Under the pieces are notes generated by a model. It was given only the letters and a program-made list of their open reading frames with translations, had not been told where the DNA came from and made no database searches. Made by a program: the position numbers and the translations under genes. Below, in pieces: positions 3,655 through 61,024 of a DNA stretch of 64,000 nt; the first letter of the stretch is position 1, and each line of letters opens with the position of its first letter. This DNA comes from an uncultured Chloroflexia bacterium (GTDB lineage: Bacteria > Chloroflexota > Limnocylindria > Limnocylindrales > CSP1-4), in the NCBI GenBank assembly GCA_963835945.1, contig CAWIHR010000077.1, forward strand, positions 6,792 through 70,791. Direction: 5' to 3'.

Positions 3655-3686
3655 GCCGATCCGATCTCCTCTTGGGACGCGTCCCT

Positions 3687-3811
3687 GCGGGTCGGTCTCG
3701 CCAGCGGCTCGGCGCGGTCCGGGCGGCACGTATGTGGGCCGCGTGTCAGAGCCCCCCGTACGCGTCCATTGTCCCACCGGGGTCGATGCGCCCGACGCGC
3801 TCGGCTCGCGG
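3687..3811 (-). promoter_or_regulatory. leader/promoter cassette copy C
   Basis: Carries TGGGACAAT (3776-3768), the conserved hairpin and GGCGAGACCGACCCGC. Closely related to copy D. Confidence 0.6.
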
Positions 3812-5677: not shown

Positions 5678-5706
5678 GATCCGACCCCTCCCCACAGATG
5701 TGATCT

Positions 5707-5802
5707 GCGGGTCGGTCTCGCCAGTGGCTCGGCGCGGTCCCGGCGGCACGTATGTGGGCCGCGTGTCATGGCTCCCCGTATGGGCAGATTGTCCCACCGG
5801 GC
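5707..5802 (-). promoter_or_regulatory. leader/promoter cassette copy D
   Basis: Carries TGGGACAAT (5796-5788), the conserved hairpin (5743-5762) and GGCGAGACCGACCCGC. Directly upstream of the beta-helix gene. Confidence 0.6.
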
Positions 5803-11549: not shown

Positions 11550-12112
11550 CTCGAACGGCTCTGCCTGCTCGCGGGCCCGGATGACCGCGAGGCTGGCCCA
11601 CTCGAGCAGATCGCGCCAGGGCGACTGTCCCGCCCGTCTTCTCTGCGAGCAGCTTCGCTCGGGCCGCCCGTGCGCTCGAGCTCGTCAGGTCCAGCGTGCC
11701 GTGGTCGACGTGCTGATCCCGGTGGCGTACGACGAGGTAGGCTGCGGCACTCGCCGCGGCTCCAGCGCAGCCGGCTGATCTCGAGCTCGCTCGGGTCCGC
11801 CATGACGAGGAAGCCGAGCCCCTGTCGCACGAGCAGCGGCTCCCCGGTGCGGAGTGAGCGGTCTAGTGCAGCGGCTTCTTCGGGCGGTAAGTCGGGCGGG
11901 CGCGGGATGCTCTCGACGTCCGCCAGGACGGGCGGCGGCTCGGCCATGACTTGGTCCCGGTACGCGATCGCCTGCGCCCGGTGCCGGAGCTGCACCTGCT
12001 CGGCCGTGAACTCCTCGAGGGCCAGCCCGTCGTCCTCGTCAGCCTCGGGCGGCGGTATCGGGGCGACGATCCACGCTCCGTCGTCGGCGGGCATCGGCTC
12101 GGCCCCGTTCAT
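11550..12112 (-). pseudogene. probable N-terminal region of the RepA-like protein, split over three frames
   Basis: Frame 1 reads MNGAEPMPADD...SELEISRLRWS. Frame 2 reads AAASAAAYLVVRHRDQHVDHGTLDLTSSSARAARAKLLAEKTGG. Frame 3 reads QSPWRDLLEWASLAVIRAREQAEPFEMVGRR and runs into the ATPase ORF. Confidence 0.4.
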
Positions 12113-21322: not shown

Positions 21323-22177
21323 ATGACCATACTGGAGGACCCGCGCGTCATCGAGTTCGGCTCCGAGCACTACAACGCGGAGCTCGTCAGACGCGAGGAC
21401 GACACGGAGGAGCTCGCGACCTTCTGGGTAAGGTTCCGGGGCGAGCCCGTCTCGTTCGAGCCCGGCCAGTACATGACCATCGGGGTCTACGCCGACGGCC
21501 GGCTTGTGCAGCGGCCGTACTCAGTGGCCTCCTCGCCGCGCATGGCCCGCGACGGCTACGAATTCTACGTCCGGCTCGTCCCGATCCTGCGGTTCACGTC
21601 GTTACTCTGGCGGCTTCCGCTCGGGCACGGTATGCGGATGACCGGCCCCAAGGGGCGCTTCGTGCTGGAGGACGACGACCCACGCACACACCTCTTCATC
21701 TCGACCGGCACCGGGATCGCGCCATTCATTTCGATGATCCGGACCGCCCTGGTCGACAAGAGACCGCGCCGCACGGTGATCGCGCACGGTGCCTCCTACG
21801 TGGAGGAGCTGGGCTACCGCCGCGAGCTCGAACAGCTACAGCGCGAGGGGTACCCGCTGACCTACGTGCCCACGATCTCCCGGCCCGCAGAACCCGAGAA
21901 CGCAGGCTGGCAGGGCAGGACCGGCCGCATCGAGACTATCCTGCACGACCTCTGCGACGAGTGCAGTATTCTCCCGTACCGGACGGTCGTGTACATCTGC
22001 GGGAACCCGGAGATGATCCTGAAGGCGGAGGCGATCGTGCAGAGCCACGGGCTCCCCGAGCCACACGTCAAGAAAGAGCTGTACTGGCCTAAGGGCAAGG
22101 GTGCCGGGCAACCGGTCGACGTGACCACAGGCGAGCGAGTGCACGGGCGCGCGGCGGAGGTCGCCAGCCAGGCCTGA
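21323..22177 (+). CDS. ferredoxin-NADP+ reductase family flavoprotein
   Basis: Contains RPYSVASSP (RxYS FAD motif), GPKGRF and ISTGTGIAPFISM. Confidence 0.8.
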   Translation: MTILEDPRVIEFGSEHYNAELVRREDDTEELATFWVRFRGEPVSFEPGQYMTIGVYADGRLVQRPYSVASSPRMARDGYEFYVRLVPILRFTSLLWRLPLGHGMRMTGPKGRFVLEDDDPRTHLFISTGTGIAPFISMIRTALVDKRPRRTVIAHGASYVEELGYRRELEQLQREGYPLTYVPTISRPAEPENAGWQGRTGRIETILHDLCDECSILPYRTVVYICGNPEMILKAEAIVQSHGLPEPHVKKELYWPKGKGAGQPVDVTTGERVHGRAAEVASQA

Positions 22178-54584: not shown

Positions 54585-55400
54585 TCAGACGCCCGCTTCC
54601 CCCGACAAACTTACGTCACGCCCGTTCGCCGTCAGGACCTCGGGCCCCTCCGGCAAGATGGCAATCGTCTGCTCCCAGTGCGCGGCCAGACTGCCGTCGG
54701 CCGTGGCGACGGTCCAGCCGTCGTCGCGGACCCGCACCTCAGGCCGGCCGAGCGTGAACATGGGCTCGATTGCCAGGCATAACCCGACCTCAAGCTTGCG
54801 CCCGCGACCGAATCCGCGATAGTTGGGCACGAACGGCTCCTCGTGCATCTCGGTGCCGATGCCGTGGCCCCCGTACTCCCTCAGCACACCATAGCCACGC
54901 TCCATCGCCACGGCCTCAACTGCGGAGGCGATATCGCCGACGACCCCTCCCGGCCGCGCTGCGGCGATGCCGGCATCCATCCCGCGCCGCGTCTCCTGAA
55001 CCAGCAGGCGAACCTCCGGCGCCACCGAACCGACCGTGAATGTCCGTGCCGCGTCCCCGTGCCACCCGTCGACGATTGCGCCGGCGTCGATCGACACCAC
55101 CTGCCCCGCCTCGATCCGGCGGCGACCGGGGATGCCGTGGACCACTTCGTCGTCGATCGAGACGCAGATCGTGTGGCGGTATGGCGAGCCCGCGCCCATC
55201 ATCACGCCGATAAACGAGGGCGTCGCACCGACATCACGGATCATCTCCGCGGCGACCCGGTCGAGATCCTCCGTGGTGATCCCCGGGCACAGCTCCTCCC
55301 CCAGCCGGTCGAGCACATCTGCGACGAGCCGGCCGGCTCGTCGCATCGTCTCCACCTGGCTGCGGGACTTGAGCGTGACACGTCGCTCGGCCAAGATCAT
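54585..55400 (-). CDS. map: type I methionine aminopeptidase
   Basis: The internal ATG at 55400 overlaps the true adk stop (ATGA). Metal-binding blocks VSIDAGA, GHGIG and LAIEPM. Confidence 0.92.
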   Translation of the reverse strand: MILAERRVTLKSRSQVETMRRAGRLVADVLDRLGEELCPGITTEDLDRVAAEMIRDVGATPSFIGVMMGAGSPYRHTICVSIDDEVVHGIPGRRRIEAGQVVSIDAGAIVDGWHGDAARTFTVGSVAPEVRLLVQETRRGMDAGIAAARPGGVVGDIASAVEAVAMERGYGVLREYGGHGIGTEMHEEPFVPNYRGFGRGRKLEVGLCLAIEPMFTLGRPEVRVRDDGWTVATADGSLAAHWEQTIAILPEGPEVLTANGRDVSLSGEAGV

Positions 55401-56075
55401 GCGGCCTCGCTCCGCCCCGGCCTGGCCGGATGTGAGATCGCCCGCAGGAGCGCGTCTGTGACCCTCTCGATCGACTCGGTGCCATCCACGGCCACTAGGA
55501 CGCCCTGATTCTGTGTAGTGGTCGATCACGTCGTACATCGGCGGTAGCTGCTGATCGAGTCGCGCGCGGACTGTCTCGGGGCGGTCGTCGTCGCGCTGGT
55601 ACAGCGCCGACCCGTCGACGTCGCAGATGCCGGGCACAGCGGGGGGCCGACTGACGACGTGGTATGGATGGCCGGCTGCGCGGCAGAGCCAGCGCCCCGA
55701 CAGCCTGCCGACGAGTTCCTCCTCGGGCACGCCGATATACAGCGCGGCGTCGACGCGGGCACCACGTCGCGCGAGTGCCGCGTCAAGGGATCCTGCCTGC
55801 GGCCGTGTGCGCGGGAAACCGTCCAGGATGACGCCGTCCGCGGCGTCGGCCTGGTCGAGGCGCTCCTCGATCATGCCAACCACGACGGGGTCCGGCACGA
55901 GTGCCCCACGGTCCATGTACCGCTTGGCCTCGCCACCGAGCCGGGTGCCAGCTCGCACGGCCTCCCGGAACAGGTCGCCCGAGGCGACGTGCAGGAGCCC
56001 CAGCCGCTCCGCGAGGATGGCCGCCTGAGTTCCTTTGCCGGCGCCCGGGGCGCCGATCATGACGTAGACCTTCAC
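55397..56075 (-). CDS. adk: adenylate kinase with one apparent frameshift near 55505-55520
   Basis: The 5' frame reads GAPGAGKGTQ...DVIDHY. The expected C-terminus QNQGVLVAVDGTESIERVTDALLRAISHPA.. is in another frame and ends at a TGA at 55397. The ORF track therefore shows a false adk-map fusion. Confidence 0.85.
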
Positions 56076-57349
56076 CGGATGAAGCCCTCGTAGTTGCGCA
56101 TCATCAGTTGCGCCTCCACCTGCTTCATCGTCTCGACCACAACCGATACAACGATCAGGAGCGCGGTGCCCCCGAGGGCGATCCCCTGCAGGCTCGGGAA
56201 CGCCTGCGAGATGACGAACGGCATCACGGCCACGACGCCCAGAAAGAGAGCCCCTGCGATCGTAATGCGGAACACCACTGCCTGCAGGTAGTCACGGGTG
56301 GGGTTACCGGGCCGGATGCCGGGTATGAACCCGCCGTTCTTGCGCAGCTGGTCCGCGGTGTCCTCGGGCTTGAAGGTGAAGGCTGTGTAGAAGTAGGTGA
56401 ATCCCACCGTAAGGGCAAAGTACAGCGCCGCATACAGGGGGCTGGTAGTGCCCAAGAGAGTCTGGATCGCGTGGGCTACGTCCGCCACGACCGCGACCTG
56501 CGAGGAAGCGAAATAGGACGCGAGCTGCGCGGGGAACAAGATGATGCTGACCGCGAAGATGATCGGGATGACGCTGGCCTGATTGACCCGCAATGGGAGG
56601 AACGTGGCACCGCCCTGGTACAAGCGGCGACCGCGCACGCGGCTCGCGTACTGCACCGGGATACGACGCTGTCCTTCTTGCATGTAGATGATCGCCGCGA
56701 TCATGATTATGCCGACCACCGCGAGCGCGATGCCGGCGGCCCAGTCGGGCGCCTGGAGGAACGCGCCCACGGCCACCGGCACGCGGCCCACGATGCCGGC
56801 GAAGATGATGAAGCTCACCCCGTTGCCGATCCCCCTCTCGGTGATCAGCTCGCCGAGCCACATCAGCAGCACCGTCCCGGCCGTCAGCGAGATGATCTGC
56901 GTGACGGTGACCAGGCTCGCAAGGTCGAAGCTCGTCAGCACGCCCTGGCTGTTGAGGATCGCCAGGAATCCGTAGGACTGGATCAGCGCCAGCGGCACCG
57001 TTAGGTACCGGGTGTACTGGTTGATCCGCTGCCGCCCGTACTCGCCCTCGTGCGACAGCGCCTGCAGGCTCGGGATCACGCCCTGCATCAGAGTCAGGAT
57101 GATGGACGCGTTGATGTAGGGGTTGAGGCCCATGCCGATCACCGAGAACGACGACAGGCCTCCGCCCGAGAAGATGTTGAGCAGGCCAAGCAGCTGATTG
57201 TTGTTGAAGAGGGTATTCAGGGCCTCGTGGTTGACTCCCGGCACAGGCACGTGCGCCAGCGCGCGCACGATGATTAGCATTCCGAAGACGAACAGTATTC
57301 GTCGCCGGATGTCCGGGGCGCGGAACGCGTTAATGAGGGCGTCGAACAC
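56072..57349 (-). CDS. secY: preprotein translocase subunit SecY
   Basis: 425 aa and 10 TM helices. Contains GMGLNPYINASII and GIGNGVSFIIFAGI. Confidence 0.97.
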   Translation of the reverse strand: MFDALINAFRAPDIRRRILFVFGMLIIVRALAHVPVPGVNHEALNTLFNNNQLLGLLNIFSGGGLSSFSVIGMGLNPYINASIILTLMQGVIPSLQALSHEGEYGRQRINQYTRYLTVPLALIQSYGFLAILNSQGVLTSFDLASLVTVTQIISLTAGTVLLMWLGELITERGIGNGVSFIIFAGIVGRVPVAVGAFLQAPDWAAGIALAVVGIIMIAAIIYMQEGQRRIPVQYASRVRGRRLYQGGATFLPLRVNQASVIPIIFAVSIILFPAQLASYFASSQVAVVADVAHAIQTLLGTTSPLYAALYFALTVGFTYFYTAFTFKPEDTADQLRKNGGFIPGIRPGNPTRDYLQAVVFRITIAGALFLGVVAVMPFVISQAFPSLQGIALGGTALLIVVSVVVETMKQVEAQLMMRNYEGFIR

Positions 57350-57352
57350 CGT

Positions 57353-58000
57353 CTACTCCGCCTGCGGGGATACGGACCCCTGCTCCTCGTCGGATTGAGG
57401 TTCGGGCTCAGCGGCCGCCGGCGCGGACTCGTCCACGGTCGGCCCGGACGATGTTGCGTCGACTCCGGGAGCGTCCTTGCCGGGTGCGGCCACACCGAGG
57501 GCGCTGAGCGGCTGGTCAGGGATTTCGAGCACCTGGGCCGTGCCGCCCGCGGCCTCGATCTTCGCCGCCGCACTCTTGGTGAACGCATCGGCGACCACGA
57601 ACAGTCGGCGATCCACATCCCCTTGGCCCAGAACCTTGACGGGCTGCCGCACCGAGCCGAGCAGCCCGGCGGCAAGCATCAGGTCCGGGTTAACCGCGAC
57701 GGGAGAGTTCGACGCTGGTTCGCCGAAGCCACCGGCAGCGGCGACGTCGTTGATGCGGCCGACGTTGACCACCGCGTAGTCCAGGCGGAACCGCCGCTTG
57801 AAACCGCGCAGCTTGGGGATGCGCTGAGACGCTGGCGTCTGGCCGCCCTCGAACCACAGGCGGATCGAGCTGCCGGTGCGGGACTTCTGACCCTTAGTGC
57901 CTCGGCCGGCCGTCTTGCCCTTGCCGGCCGCGATGCCCCGGCCTACGCGGGTCCGGGCAGTGTGCGACCCGTCGGCGGGACGCAGGTCGTGGAGCTTCAT
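57353..58000 (-). CDS. rplO: 50S ribosomal protein L15 (uL15) with ~65-aa acidic/Pro-Ala C-terminal extension
   Basis: ATG at 58000 follows an AGGAGGAA RBS. Begins MKLHDLRPADGSHTARTRVGRGIAAGKGKTAGRGTKGQ. Confidence 0.92.
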   Translation of the reverse strand: MKLHDLRPADGSHTARTRVGRGIAAGKGKTAGRGTKGQKSRTGSSIRLWFEGGQTPASQRIPKLRGFKRRFRLDYAVVNVGRINDVAAAGGFGEPASNSPVAVNPDLMLAAGLLGSVRQPVKVLGQGDVDRRLFVVADAFTKSAAAKIEAAGGTAQVLEIPDQPLSALGVAAPGKDAPGVDATSSGPTVDESAPAAAEPEPQSDEEQGSVSPQAE

Positions 58001-58100
58001 GCCCGTTCCTCCTGAGGGCCAGACCCTTCGGTGGCCGCGTTTGGCGCTGCGCCCTGCCGCGCCGGCCCGCCGGCGGCGGCATCGAGTGCGGCTGCCCACC

Positions 58101-58364
58101 CTACTCTTGCCCGGCCAGGCACCTTGGGGGCCGTACGACGCGGGCCGGCGTGCACGGGCTGCTCAGCGGGCACCTCCTCCACCTCGACAAGGAATCAATG
58201 GAGCGCACCATGCCACGGGTTGCGGGGTTGTCAGTGACCTCGACCGTCTCGTGCATCCGGTGCAGCCCAAGTGCGCGGACGGTGCCCCGAGCCTTCGCGG
58301 TATAGCTGATGGGACTCTTGTGCAGACGAACACGCAGCCTGCCGGGCACCAACTTATCCGACAT
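58101..58364 (-). CDS. rpmD: 50S ribosomal protein L30 (uL30); 3' end uncertain because of a frameshift near 58185
   Basis: ..[32 protein letters not shown] is followed by out-of-frame text. The expected VEVEEV continues in another frame that stops at 57997 (ATGA with rplO). Confidence 0.75.
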
Positions 58365-58889
58365 CGACGGCCACCTCCGTGGTCGGCTGGCCGCTGATCA
58401 CGCTCCGCAGTGGCACCCCACGCTGTGCCGACAGCTCCTCCGCGCTGCGGAGGCTCCGCAGCGCCTCGAGCGCGGCCCTAGTCACGTTCACCGGGTTCGT
58501 TGAGCCCAGCGACTTGGACAGGATGTCCCGGATCCCGGCGGACTCCACGACCGCCCGCACAGAACCGCCGGCGATCACGCCGGTCCCTGCGACGCGGGCT
58601 TGAGCAGCACGCTGCCGGCCCGAAGTGGACGGTGACCTCGTGCGGGATGGTGGTGCCGACGAGCGGCACGCGGAACAGGTGTCTTCTTGGCGTCCTCGAC
58701 ACCCTTGCGGATGGCCTCGGGCACCTCGTTTGCCTTGCCAAGGCCGACACCGACGTGGCCGTCGCCGTCGCCGACCACGACGAGCGCGCAGAAGCTGAAG
58801 CGCCGGCCGCCCTTCACGACCTTGGCGACGCGGTTGATCTGGACGACGCGCTCCTCGAGCGTCAGCCTCGCTGGGTCGATCCTCGCCAA
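58354..58889 (-). CDS. rpsE: 30S ribosomal protein S5 (uS5), at least 3 frameshifts
   Basis: The pieces [23 protein letters not shown].., ..[20 protein letters not shown].., ..VLLKPASQG.. and ..[28 protein letters not shown].. lie in different frames. Confidence 0.8.
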
Positions 58890-58908
58890 CGATGGCTCCG
58901 TTCCGTCT

Positions 58909-59296
58909 CTAGAAGTCGAGGCCCGCTTCGCGGGCGGCGTCGGCGAGCGCCTTGACGCGCCCGTGGTACGGAATCCCGCCCGGTCGAAGACGACCTTGCT
59001 CGATGCCGGCGACCTGGCCCGCTCGGCGACCAGGCGGCCGACCTGCTCGGCGCGCGCTCGGTCTTGGTGCCCGTGGCCCGCGCGCAGCTCGGGCTCGAGC
59101 GTCGACGCCGCGGCCAGCGTGCGGCCGGTCGCGTCGTCGATGACCTGGGCGTAGATGTGGTCGAGGCTGCGGAAGACCGCCAGCCGCGGCCGCTGCCGCC
59201 GTCCCGCCGCGTGGAGGCGGATCCGCTCGTGGCGCTTCGGCGAGCGGCGCTCGCGACTGCCGAGCCTGTCGTCGTCGGACTACGTCCGCCTCGCAC
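58909..59296 (-). CDS. rplR: 50S ribosomal protein L18 (uL18), at least 5 frameshifts
   Basis: The pieces [30 protein letters not shown] / ATGTKTE / [15 protein letters not shown] / GQVAGIEQ / VVFDRAGF / [19 protein letters not shown] alternate between frames. Confidence 0.75.
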
Positions 59297-59303
59297 CGGC
59301 TGC

Positions 59304-59859
59304 TCACTTCTTCGCCGCCATCTTGCCGGCCTTGCCGGCCTTGCGGCGGATCTCTCGCCGGCGTACCTGATGCCCTTGCCCTTGTAGGGCTCGGGCTTGC
59401 GGAGCGCGCGGACGCTTGGCGGCGACCTGGCCGACCAGCTCCTTGTCGATGCCGACGATCACGGCGAGTCGGTCGGGTTCGTCCACCTCGAAGGTGATGC
59501 CCGGCGGGCGGCTCGATGTCGACGGGGTGGCTGTAGCCCAGCCGAGCTCCAGCTTTCGCCCGACTTTCTGGGCGCGGTAGCCGACGCCGATGATCTCGAG
59601 CGCTTGCGTGAAGCCCTGCCGTCACCCCGGTCGACCATGTTGGCGACGAGCGTCCGGGTCAGCCCGTGCAGCGCGCGCTGAGCGCTTGCTCGTCGTCGGG
59701 CGCGCTCGACGCGCATGCCGCCGTCTTCCGGACGACGGTGATCCGGGGTGAGCGTCCCGTGGAGCTCCCCTTGGGGCCCTGTCACCGTGACGTGGCTGCC
59801 GTCGATGGTGACCTCGACGCCTGCCGGGACGGGATGGGCAGCTTTCCGATACGTGACAT
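59304..59859 (-). CDS. rplF: 50S ribosomal protein L6 (uL6), multiple frameshifts
   Basis: [10 protein letters not shown] / [28 protein letters not shown] / ..[19 protein letters not shown].. / ..RRKAGKAGK lie in different frames. Confidence 0.75.
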
Positions 59860-59868
59860 GGCTGCCCT

Positions 59869-60269
59869 CTACCAGACATAGCGCGAGGACTTCGCCGCCG
59901 AGCTGGCCTTGCGGGCCTGACGGTCGGTCATGATGCCCTTGGCGGTGCTGAGATGACGACGCCGAGGCCGCCGAGGACCCTCGGGATCGTCGGTCTTCGG
60001 CGTAGACGCGCAGACCGGGCTTGCTGACACCGCTTGAGCCCCGGACGACGGGCGCCTTGCCGCTCGACGTACTTGAGCGTCGATCTCGAGCATTGCCCGC
60101 GGCCCTTCGCCGTCTCGTCGAAGTCGGCGATGAAGCCCTCCTCCTTGAGGATTCGGCGATCTCTCGCTTGATCCGCGAGGCCGGGACATAGCACCTGCGT
60201 GCGTGCCGCGCCGTGCTCGCGTTGCGGATTCGCGTCAGCATGTCGGCGATCGGGTCGAGTCATGTTCAT
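59869..60269 (-). CDS. rpsH: 30S ribosomal protein S8 (uS8), multiple frameshifts
   Basis: MLTRIRNA / [13 protein letters not shown] / SKPGLRVYA / [13 protein letters not shown] / LGGEVLA(YVW) are split among frames. Confidence 0.75.
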
Positions 60270-60275
60270 CGGCTC

Positions 60276-60463
60276 TCACCAACTCGACTTCGTCACGCCG
60301 CGGGAGCATTCCCTGGAGCGCTCGCTCCCGGAAGCAGATGCGGCACAGCGCGAATCGACGCATGAACCCCCGCGGACGGCCGCACACGTAACACCGGTGC
60401 TTCTCCCGCACCTTGAACCGGTGTCGGGCGCTTCGCCTTCGCGATCATGGACTTCTTGGCCAT
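60276..60463 (-). CDS. rpsN: 30S ribosomal protein S14 type Z (uS14), frameshifted
   Basis: [12 protein letters not shown].. / ..[17 protein letters not shown].. / ..GVTKSSW lie in different frames. Length is 188 nt, not a multiple of 3. Confidence 0.75.
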
Positions 60464-60483
60464 TCGTGTCCCTCCCGCTCCGC

Positions 60484-61024
60484 TCAGCTCTGCGAACGGC
60501 ATGCCGAGGAGCTCGAGAAGCTCTTCGATCCTCGTCGTACTTCGCCGTGGTCACGATCTGACCTCCATGCCCGCGCAGACGGTCCATCTTGTCGTAGTCG
60601 ATCTCGGGAAACAGTGAGCTGCTCCCGGAGCCCGAGGGAGTAGTTGCCCCGGCCGTCGAACGAGCGCGACGGGACAGCCGCGGAAGTCGCGGATGCGCGG
60701 CAGCGCAAGCGCGAGAGCCGCTCCAGGAAGTCCCACATTCGCTCGCCGCGCAGCGTGACTTTGGCGCCGATCGGGTTGCCGGTCGCGGAGCTGGAACTGC
60801 GCGATCGACTGCTTGGCGCTGGTCACGACGGCTTCTGCCCGGTGATCGGCCGTCAGATCGCCCACGGCCGCATCGAGGGCTTTGGCGTTCTGCAGCGCTT
60901 CACCTAGGCCGATGTTGACGACGATCTTCTCGACACGCGGCACCTGCATGGGGTTCGAGTAAGCGAACTCCTTTTGGAGCGCCGGCACGACTTCCTCGCG
61001 GTAGCGCCGCTTCAGCTCGCTCAT
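60484..61024 (-). CDS. rplE: 50S ribosomal protein L5 (uL5), at least 6 frameshifts
   Basis: [20 protein letters not shown].. is intact, then the consensus AITGQKP reads [29 protein letters not shown] / [10 protein letters not shown] / [19 protein letters not shown] / [12 protein letters not shown] / [11 protein letters not shown] alternate between frames. Confidence 0.78.

Follow-up and report, generated by a model that had tools for sequence, protein, structure and literature searches.

A probable consensus artefact in the spc ribosomal-protein operon of a Limnocylindria-type Chloroflexota contig

A patch of about 2.4 kb in the spc ribosomal-protein operon is very probably an artefact of assembly or consensus calling, a segment built from noisy reads and left unpolished, rather than a biological state of the genome. 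Within a 64-kb window (the whole stretch of DNA analysed), the patch carries indels that are private to this assembly, local, balanced between insertion and deletion, and blind to sequence context and codon position. They are laid over genes that are otherwise full-length, and the allelic background shifts in the patch as well. The organism itself almost certainly has intact rpsE, rplR, rplF, rpsH, rpsN and rplE genes, like its conspecifics.

Extent of the patch and state of its genes

The minus strand of the window encodes the S10/spc/alpha ribosomal operon, at approximately 53.3 to 64 kb. The locus concerned is the spc operon, with the gene order rplN-rplX-rplE-rpsN-rpsH-rplF-rplR-rpsE-rpmD-rplO-secY-adk-map; this order was annotated with Pfam in three contigs of the same species (L081, L082 and L083), with which the window is collinear by tblastn and blastn. 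A first-pass annotation of the sequence had reported dense frameshifts at 58,185-60,850, and the patch that it described is real: the earliest indel by coordinate, an isolated one in rpmD, is at 58,196, indels become dense from 58,583 onwards, and the final indel is at 60,846 (Table 1). The rpmD deletion stands apart from the dense patch, ~390 nt away. Error-like substitutions span 58,600-60,810, and alleles of foreign lineages are limited to 58,513-60,907.

Table 1. Coordinates and indel content of the anomalous patch and of the genes affected in the window
Feature	Position	Strand	Observation
Anomalous patch	58513..60907	-	~2.4 kb; indel, error-like substitution and foreign-allele layers
adk	55397..56075	-	outside the patch; window-private 1-nt insertion at 55,512
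rpmD (uL30; 122 codons in relatives)	57997..58364	-	1-nt deletion at 58,196; frames -3/-2
rpsE (uS5)	58354..58889	-	3 indels: 58,583 deletion, 58,619 deletion, 58,683 insertion
rplR (uL18)	58909..59278	-	16 indel events
rplF (uL6)	59304..59859	-	~24 indel events (11 bases deleted, 15 inserted)
rpsH (uS8)	59869..60269	-	~17 indel events (8 bases deleted, 13 inserted)
rpsN (uS14, zinc-type, 61 codons)	60276..60463	-	3 inserted bases
rplE (uL5)	60483..61024	-	12 indel events, all at 60,485-60,846

The limits of the patch are unrelated to gene or operon units. The C-terminal 77 codons of rpsE are clean (98.7% identity to the same-species protein), and thus one edge falls inside this gene, at about codon 100. 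Likewise, rplE is identical to its L081 counterpart over the first 65 codons, which places the second edge inside a gene as well (about codon 65).

Same-species contigs were retrieved by an exact-protein look-up with RpsC, which is identical in four independent contigs (L081-L084) from different samples. Outside the patch, the window matches these contigs at 98.2-98.3% identity. L081, L082 and L083, which are short-read contigs, span all seven patch genes in intact form; L084 stops inside rplR, and the genes that it covers are intact. Exact-protein look-ups with SecY, the 928-aa ORF, RplN and RpoA found no further same-species sequence on record.

In pairwise alignments to L081, L082 and L083, the interval 58,500-60,910 contains 81-83 indel events (3.4% of positions), against 3-4 (0.03-0.05%) in 8,799 nt of flanking sequence (Fisher p = 7e-52 to 2e-49). 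Against L081, the interval (2,411 nt) contains 83 indels plus 194 substitutions and the flanks 3 and 149, with p = 7e-52 for the indel contrast. Rates were taken from pairwise alignments; a MAFFT multiple alignment inflates mismatches where indels are dense (230 versus ~150-190 pairwise). The same patch is visible against five more distant relatives (L001-L005). The indels are thus private to the assembly from which the window derives, and they are missing from the four independent conspecific assemblies.

When the window is searched with L081 proteins (tblastn), rpmD, rpsE, rplR, rplF, rpsH and rpsN are each split across two or three frames, and rplE is recovered in one frame at just 55% identity; this bears out the frame hopping first described. 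Removal of the indels yields seven full-length genes with zero internal stops and 83-98% identity to the same-species proteins; repaired rpsN agrees with L081 at 60 of 61 residues. In rplR, the Shine-Dalgarno sequence and ATG have been wiped out, along with the rplF-rplR spacer, by a burst of deletions at 59,251-59,305. The minimum of five frame switches proposed for uL18 holds, given its 16 indel events. Its stretch GTAARPRL is broken by indels as had been claimed, but the one-base repair offered for it is insufficient, as two 1-nt insertions (59,194 and 59,206) must be removed. In uL5, the aberrant ADHRAEA does arise from an insertion and a deletion 18 nt apart, each of 1 nt, at 60,846 and 60,828, respectively.

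From rplV to rplX and from rplO to rpsK, adk excepted, the window is collinear with L081 and reads in one frame at 95.5-100% protein identity (tblastn). The flanking genes had been considered intact, which is correct for these two stretches but not for adk, where the insertion puts the last ~35 codons out of frame and joins adk and map in one 496-aa ORF. Isolated private indels are found at 55,512 (adk), 58,196 (rpmD) and 61,407, and point to a background level of indel error such as is typical of long-read assemblies. The remainder of the contig is essentially clean, and the cause of the patch must therefore be very local. A tblastn search of the 64-kb window, the part of the genome covered here, identified no second copy of the patch genes.

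As for signals in the sequence itself, a GC3 frame plot of the whole window is too noisy to place frameshifts. A codon-usage Viterbi analysis recovers the patch and the adk frameshift and additionally flags ~11,614/11,750, 21,313, 29,588 and 47,346. Two of these, 29,588 (glmU / CNNM) and 47,346 (cdaA / ybbR), were rejected as frameshifts because they are ordinary gene boundaries by Pfam. Pfam gave no information on ~11,614/11,750 and 21,313.

Spectrum of indels and error-like substitutions

The patch contains 42 insertions and 42 deletions, for a net change of -10 nt. Most of these indels (71/84) are of 1 nt, their median spacing is 18 nt, and all four bases occur among those inserted or deleted, in both directions. 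One-base indels touch an identical base in 17 of 70 cases, compared with an expected fraction of 0.40 +/- 0.06 for simulated uniform indels (depletion p = 0.007). Thus, the indels are not the product of slippage, and homopolymer-driven error was rejected as their source. Errors that persist in polished nanopore or HiFi consensus sequences are usually homopolymer-centred; with its depletion of indels beside identical bases, the profile of the patch resembles raw reads rather than typical residual errors.

Where nine relatives are invariant, the window differs by substitution at 72 columns in 2,589 nt (2.8%), against 17 in 7,677 nt of the flanking genes (0.2%). These 72 error-like substitutions are distributed 31/23/18 over the three codon positions (chi-square p = 0.17), and 57 are non-synonymous and 15 synonymous. 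The ratio of indels to error-like substitutions is therefore about 1:1 (3.4% versus 2.8%). A spectrum in which insertions are about as frequent as deletions, indels are about as frequent as substitutions and codon position is ignored is that of a sequencing process.

The first-pass annotation had interpreted the patch as a locally low-quality consensus, for instance a gap filled with a single error-prone read, in preference to the inactivation of seven essential genes. This reading is supported by the privacy of the indels, their balanced spectrum, the disregard of codon position and gene boundaries, the full length of the repaired genes and the absence of a second copy from the window. Under this reading, ~2.4 kb (58.5-60.9 kb) within the single, native spc operon would have entered the contig at raw long-read quality, with ~3.4% indels and ~3% random substitutions. 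The source would likely be a single noisy read, very few such reads, or a stretch never reached by polishing. We infer that the technical cause lies in low depth, in a long read that escaped polishing or in a read of another strain that bridges the patch; such a bridging read, if from a co-occurring strain, would fit the foreign template described below.

Origin of the foreign alleles

In addition to the frameshifts reported at first, the patch has a layer of foreign alleles, which the earlier account did not include. Altogether, 102 substitutions in the patch (83 synonymous, 19 non-synonymous) match alleles of other lineages, corresponding to a rate of 3.9% versus 1.3% in the flanks. At sites diagnostic of the species clade, the clade allele is present at 185/193 sites (96%) in the flanks versus 35/65 (54%) in the patch. 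This drop suggests that the template of the patch came from a related strain; it appears to have been a closely related but distinct co-occurring strain, ~5% divergent from the population represented by the flanks. With a template from a distinct strain, the segment would probably also be chimeric across strains. Within the patch, clade alleles are intermingled with out-group alleles (~54:43) and do not form blocks.

Among 169 related loci, no donor lineage fits the patch better than the lineage of the flanks, the nearest being L081 at 8.0% mismatch. A donor was also sought in JGI metagenomes with SecY; the best match, L090, belongs to a different lineage and fits the patch no better. A higher conservation of the patch genes was rejected as the reason for the small rise in distance to L001 (L081 versus L001: 8.1-8.2% in the patch, 7.7% in the right flank). 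L090 is mosaic at secY, with 8-13% divergence around the gene and 2-5% within it. Natural recombination therefore occurs in this operon, and the foreign alleles could be biological rather than chimeric.

On that basis, the indels may be errors superimposed on a real homologous-recombination tract of ~2.4 kb, acquired from a ~5% divergent relative and afterwards poorly covered or polished, for example because dominant-strain reads or short-read polishing data no longer mapped there. We consider this unlikely, although of more than negligible probability. It agrees with the natural mosaicism of the operon, with the interleaving of clade and out-group alleles, as expected of a sister lineage, and with the 83 synonymous against 19 non-synonymous shared substitutions, which indicate that these alleles evolved under selection. 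However, the tract of divergent alleles (58,513-60,907) and that of errors (58,583-60,846) agree in extent to within ~70 nt, for which one foreign noisy read is the simpler account.

The same interleaving of alleles would be obtained if reads from at least two co-occurring strains had piled up on the operon and the polisher had returned a mosaic with spurious indels, and ribosomal operons are conserved enough for such cross-strain recruitment of reads. Such a collapse of the consensus is nevertheless improbable: correct reads, when mixed, would not yield 2.8% novel substitutions at sites invariant in all nine relatives, nor would they garble the rplF-rplR spacer, and rplN, rplP, rpsC and rpsM, neighbours that are just as conserved, are clean.

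Gene decay, recoding and comparison with known systems

It is very improbable that the patch reflects true decay, with six or seven pseudogenes formed in situ or swapped in as a decayed duplicate and functional copies elsewhere in the genome. Disrupted frames and the loss of the rplR start codon and ribosome-binding site would be expected of decay. However, spontaneous mutation in bacteria yields indels at approximately one-tenth the frequency of substitutions, biased towards deletion and in slippage contexts, whereas in the patch indels and neutral-like substitutions stand at ~1:1, insertions equal deletions and repeated bases are avoided. The edges lie inside genes, leaving halves of rpsE and rplE pristine, and nonsense substitutions are absent. 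The flanks represent the native context of a single-copy operon, in which the essential downstream genes rplO and secY are intact, and conspecifics at 98.3% identity have intact copies of the patch genes. Bacterial pseudogenes are recognized by relaxed selection over gene units and by substitution-dominated change with deletion-biased, slippage-linked indels; the patch has a different signature.

Were the indels real, a free-living Limnocylindria-type member of the Chloroflexota would carry a shattered rpsE-rplE segment in its only spc operon and would depend on an unlinked second copy of six or seven ribosomal protein genes or on insertion/deletion correction of the transcript, which is scarcely credible and would mean that core ribosomal genes had been lost or recoded in a way without precedent. 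Repair at the level of expression, whether through dense programmed frameshifting or through insertion/deletion editing of the operon's RNA, can practically be dismissed: the indel density (median spacing 18 nt) superficially resembles Physarum mitochondrial insertional editing, but the repair would have to deal with all four bases, both inserted and deleted, in the absence of a conserved context, the indel sites are missing in all relatives, including conspecifics at 98% identity, random non-synonymous substitutions at invariant residues accompany the indels, and no such expression-level system for correcting indels is known in bacteria.

The patch has a biological importance near nil, and its practical importance is one of data hygiene. 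To gene callers, six or seven essential ribosomal proteins would appear to be absent or pseudogenized, the completeness estimate of the metagenome-assembled genome (MAG) would be lowered, and the patch could be mistaken for genome decay. Because uL5, uS8, uL6, uL18 and uS5 are standard markers, it would also corrupt ribosomal-protein phylogenies. Given the foreign-allele layer, the 2.4-kb stretch should be avoided in strain-level or recombination analysis.

Physarum mitochondrial insertional editing and programmed ribosomal frameshifting act in one direction with a preferred nucleotide, or at slippery sites, and are conserved among relatives. The patch shares with them dense frame-disrupting sites in genes that need to be expressed, but it has no uniform direction, preferred nucleotide, slippery motif or conservation. 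True pseudogene decay is a feature of reductive bacterial genomes, such as those of Mycobacterium leprae and endosymbionts. Such pseudogenes and the patch have in common multiple frameshifts and the loss of a start codon and ribosome-binding site; however, the patch has the wrong indel:substitution ratio, no deletion bias, no slippage contexts and edges inside genes, and the genes concerned are essential, reside in their native operon and are intact in conspecifics.

As in chimeric or strain-mixed metagenome contigs, the allelic background switches lineage in the patch (96% versus 54% clade alleles). The patch differs from them in that the switch extends over just ~2.4 kb and reverts to the original strain, and in that it coincides with a burst of errors, a feature absent from ordinary short-read strain chimeras. 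Assemblies from long reads (nanopore or PacBio CLR) and hybrid assemblies are documented to contain gene-fragmenting indel errors, stretches left unpolished and errors that remain where polishing fails (PMC12007338, citing Watson & Warr; PMC8812927). The patch differs from the usual residual errors of long-read assemblies in that its density is at raw-read level (3.4% indels and ~3% substitutions over 2.4 kb), it is not homopolymer-centred and the rest of the contig is essentially clean. It is like long-read and hybrid assemblies, in which errors survive locally wherever polishing data fail to map, in that its indels are private and mostly of 1 nt, produce apparent pseudogenes of genes that are intact in relatives, and are accompanied by sporadic single indels elsewhere in the window (adk, rpmD).

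An indel-dense patch in the ribosomal operon

The first-pass annotation described dense frameshifts across seven ribosomal protein genes (rpmD, rpsE, rplR, rplF, rpsH, rpsN and rplE) at 58185-60850, and the alignment to orthologous operons that it proposed confirms them: relative to same-species contigs, the patch at 58,500-60,910 (2,411 nt) contains 81-83 indel events versus 3-4 in the flanks (8,799 nt; Fisher p 7e-52 to 2e-49), and substitutions amount to 8.0-8.4% versus 1.7-1.8% (Fisher p ~1e-47). Against five more distant relatives, most 500-nt bins at 49-58.5 kb and 61-64 kb hold 0-3 frame-breaking indels, compared with 4-6 in the 58.5 kb bin and 10-28 per bin at 59.0-61.0 kb. One of these relatives, L001, has a private 89-nt insertion at the rpsE-rpmD junction (58,250-58,499 bin). 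The uL5 example of the annotation is exact (insertion at 60,846, deletion at 60,828), and its count of at least five frame switches in uL18 compares with 16 indel events in that gene; however, the uL18 stretch said to be restored by removing one base requires the removal of two insertions (59,194 and 59,206).

The window has a G+C content of ~68%. In a SecY-seeded scan of species-representative genomes, it falls among MAGs of 'Candidatus Limnocylindrales'/Chloroflexota; in the nearest of these, SecY is 92% identical and the nucleotide sequence 82-90% identical. Four contigs, each from a different sample, were identified by searching for proteins identical to the RpsC of the window: L081 (GCA_052144055.1), L082, L083 and L084, of which L082 and L083 are megahit k141 contigs. 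These represent the same species as the window because mismatch outside the patch affects just 1.5-2.0% of positions. In L081-L083, all seven genes are annotated as intact and encode the Pfam domains expected of them (rplE 179 aa, rpsN 61, rpsH 132, rplF 183, rplR 120-124, rpsE 178 and rpmD 121-122 aa); L084 terminates inside rplR, and the patch genes that it covers are intact. The uL30 (~122 aa) and uL15 (215 aa) proteins of this lineage carry long Ala/Pro/Gly/Glu-rich C-terminal extensions that differ among relatives.

In tblastn searches with L081 proteins, rpmD, rpsE, rplR, rplF, rpsH and rpsN require two or three frames, and the match to rplE lies in one frame, at just 55% identity. The claim that genes on both sides are intact holds for neighbors matching in one frame at 95.5-100% identity, but fails for adk, which has a private 1-nt insertion. 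The same searches found no further copy of the patch genes within the 64-kb window. When the indels are taken out by alignment to L081, all seven genes become full-length with zero internal stop codons, and the repaired proteins are 83-98% identical to same-species proteins.

Indel spectrum, substitution classes and boundaries

Insertions and deletions are equally frequent (42 each), 71 of the 84 events involve a single base, all four bases are represented, and the events sum to a net -10 nt. An identical base adjoins 17/70 single-base indels, versus an expected fraction of 0.40 +/- 0.06 (binomial p = 0.007) obtained by simulating uniformly random indels on orthologous sequence and applying the same alignment pipeline. 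The indels, being depleted beside identical bases, are therefore neither homopolymer nor slippage events, and such an origin was ruled out. This depletion, seen along the dense run, is the opposite of the homopolymer bias usual in polished long-read consensus.

Substitutions in six patch genes split into two clearly distinct classes. Class (a) comprises bases that are new at positions where nine relatives all agree (n = 72; 2.8% in the patch, 0.2% in the flanks); these are spread over codon positions 1/2/3 as 31/23/18 (chi-square p = 0.17), with 57 non-synonymous and 15 synonymous changes, a pattern characteristic of random noise. Class (b), in which the window base is present in another lineage (n = 102; 3.9% and 1.3%, respectively), lies at third positions in 83 cases, with 83 synonymous changes, and is the signature of real divergence under selection.

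At clade-diagnostic sites, where three same-species contigs have a common allele missing from six out-group lineages, the window has the clade allele at 185/193 sites in the flanks and only 35/65 in the patch; 28 of these 65 carry an out-group allele. The window differs from L081 at 1.7% of positions in the flanks and at 8% in the patch. Mismatch of the patch to L001 is 11%, whereas noise alone on an L081-like sequence would give ~14%; the L081-L001 distance is alike in the patch (8.1-8.2%) and right flank (7.7%). Judged from these sequence comparisons, the patch template probably came from another strain.

Indels, random substitutions and foreign alleles begin and end at the same places, to within ~70 nt, and the edges of all three layers fall inside genes. 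In rpsE, identity to L081 is 98.7% over the C-terminal 77 codons; in rplE, the initial 65 codons match L081 exactly.

Isolated indels and the rest of the window

Three isolated private indels (in adk, rpmD and the rplN-rplX spacer) occur in the 8.8 kb of flanking sequence, which otherwise matches conspecifics at 98.3% identity; they point to background errors of a long-read type, at a rate of ~3e-4. The adk insertion, probably a lone error left over from assembly, fuses adk with map, which are separate genes in all relatives. The spacer indel is intergenic and harmless.

Positions of features in the window
Feature	Position	Strand	Details
S10-spc-alpha ribosomal operon	~64.0 kb down to 53.3 kb	minus	rpsS, rplV, rpsC, rplP, rpmC, rpsQ, rplN, rplX, rplE, rpsN, rpsH, rplF, rplR, rpsE, rpmD, rplO, secY, adk, map, infA, rpmJ, rpsM, rpsK
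Dense indel run	58,583-60,846		median spacing 18 nt
Out-group-allele sites	58,513-60,907		interleaved, limited to this interval
Deletion burst	59,251-59,305		removes rplF-rplR spacer, rplR Shine-Dalgarno and ATG
rpmD deletion	58,196		1 nt, outside dense run; frameshifts end of uL30 domain
adk	55,397-56,075		
adk insertion	55,512		1 nt, window-private, non-homopolymer; shifts last ~35 codons
adk-map fusion ORF	54,585-56,075		496 aa
rplN-rplX spacer indel	61,407		1 nt versus conspecifics, outside dense patch
uL30/uL15 region	57,353-58,364		L081 9,631-10,643; both proteins with C-terminal extensions
Frame switch	11,614-11,750	minus	
Frame switch	~21,313	plus	
FNR-like oxidoreductase ORF	21,323-22,177		complete
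RF03169 match	2,632-2,713	minus	42.9 bits
RF03169 match	3,681-3,765	minus	56.2 bits
RF03169 match	5,701-5,785	minus	58.3 bits

A codon-usage Viterbi scan found no second patch of this kind in the rest of the window, and the 45.9-52.8 kb flank contains no private frameshifts relative to six relatives. Besides adk, the scan marks only two unexplained stop-less frame switches, which are possible further frameshifts; their upstream pieces have no Pfam match. The FNR-like ORF follows a coding-like stretch whose frame is open to 22,090. Three matches to the c-di-GMP-II-GAG riboswitch aptamer (RF03169; above the Rfam gathering score) lie within 3 kb, in a region of weak codon-usage signal.

Origin of the patch

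The patch is almost certainly not a real biological feature, and the simplest account of it is technical. A ~2.4-kb segment would have joined the contig at raw long-read quality, with insertions and deletions at ~1.7% each and substitutions at 3%; the total error rate of the patch approximates that of older single-pass nanopore reads. The source molecule would derive from a closely related, distinct strain, ~5% from the flanks' population once noise is subtracted, as expected if one read had bridged or filled a gap, or if polishing had not reached this part of the contig, where related strains occur together in a metagenome. From the observed error pattern we infer this cause (depth, platform, assembler). 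The initial reading of a locally low-quality consensus is supported by the random, private errors, the intact conspecific genes and the full-length repaired genes.

The foreign-allele layer may instead be a genuine recombination tract in which polishing then failed. L090, a locus of another lineage (Ga0209415_10002591), is 2-5% divergent within secY (compared over 56,250-57,250; SecY 99% identical to that of the window) and 8-13% across the rest of the operon, a mosaic suggesting that homologous recombination occurs naturally in this operon between lineages of Limnocylindria. The patch may also be a collapsed mixed-strain consensus, although this leaves the novel substitutions at invariant sites unexplained. 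Real pseudogenisation is very improbable: in spontaneous bacterial mutation, indels are ~10x rarer than substitutions, favor deletions and arise in slippage contexts, whereas the patch has a ratio of indels to neutral-like substitutions of ~1:1, balanced deletions and insertions, and indels that avoid repeated bases. Its edges also leave gene halves pristine, nonsense substitutions are absent, the context is native and single-copy with intact essential genes downstream, and the conspecifics, which are 98.3% identical to the window outside the patch, have these genes intact. Recoding or RNA editing is extremely improbable, as it would need to undo indels of both kinds, involving every one of the four bases, at positions that no relative shares.

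On the technical account, the patch calls for caution in annotation, completeness estimates and marker-gene phylogeny. Gene-fragmenting indels are well documented in long-read assemblies, as are errors that remain where polishing reads cannot be placed (PMC12007338; PMC8812927). With its gene-fragmenting indels, the patch resembles these documented long-read assembly errors.
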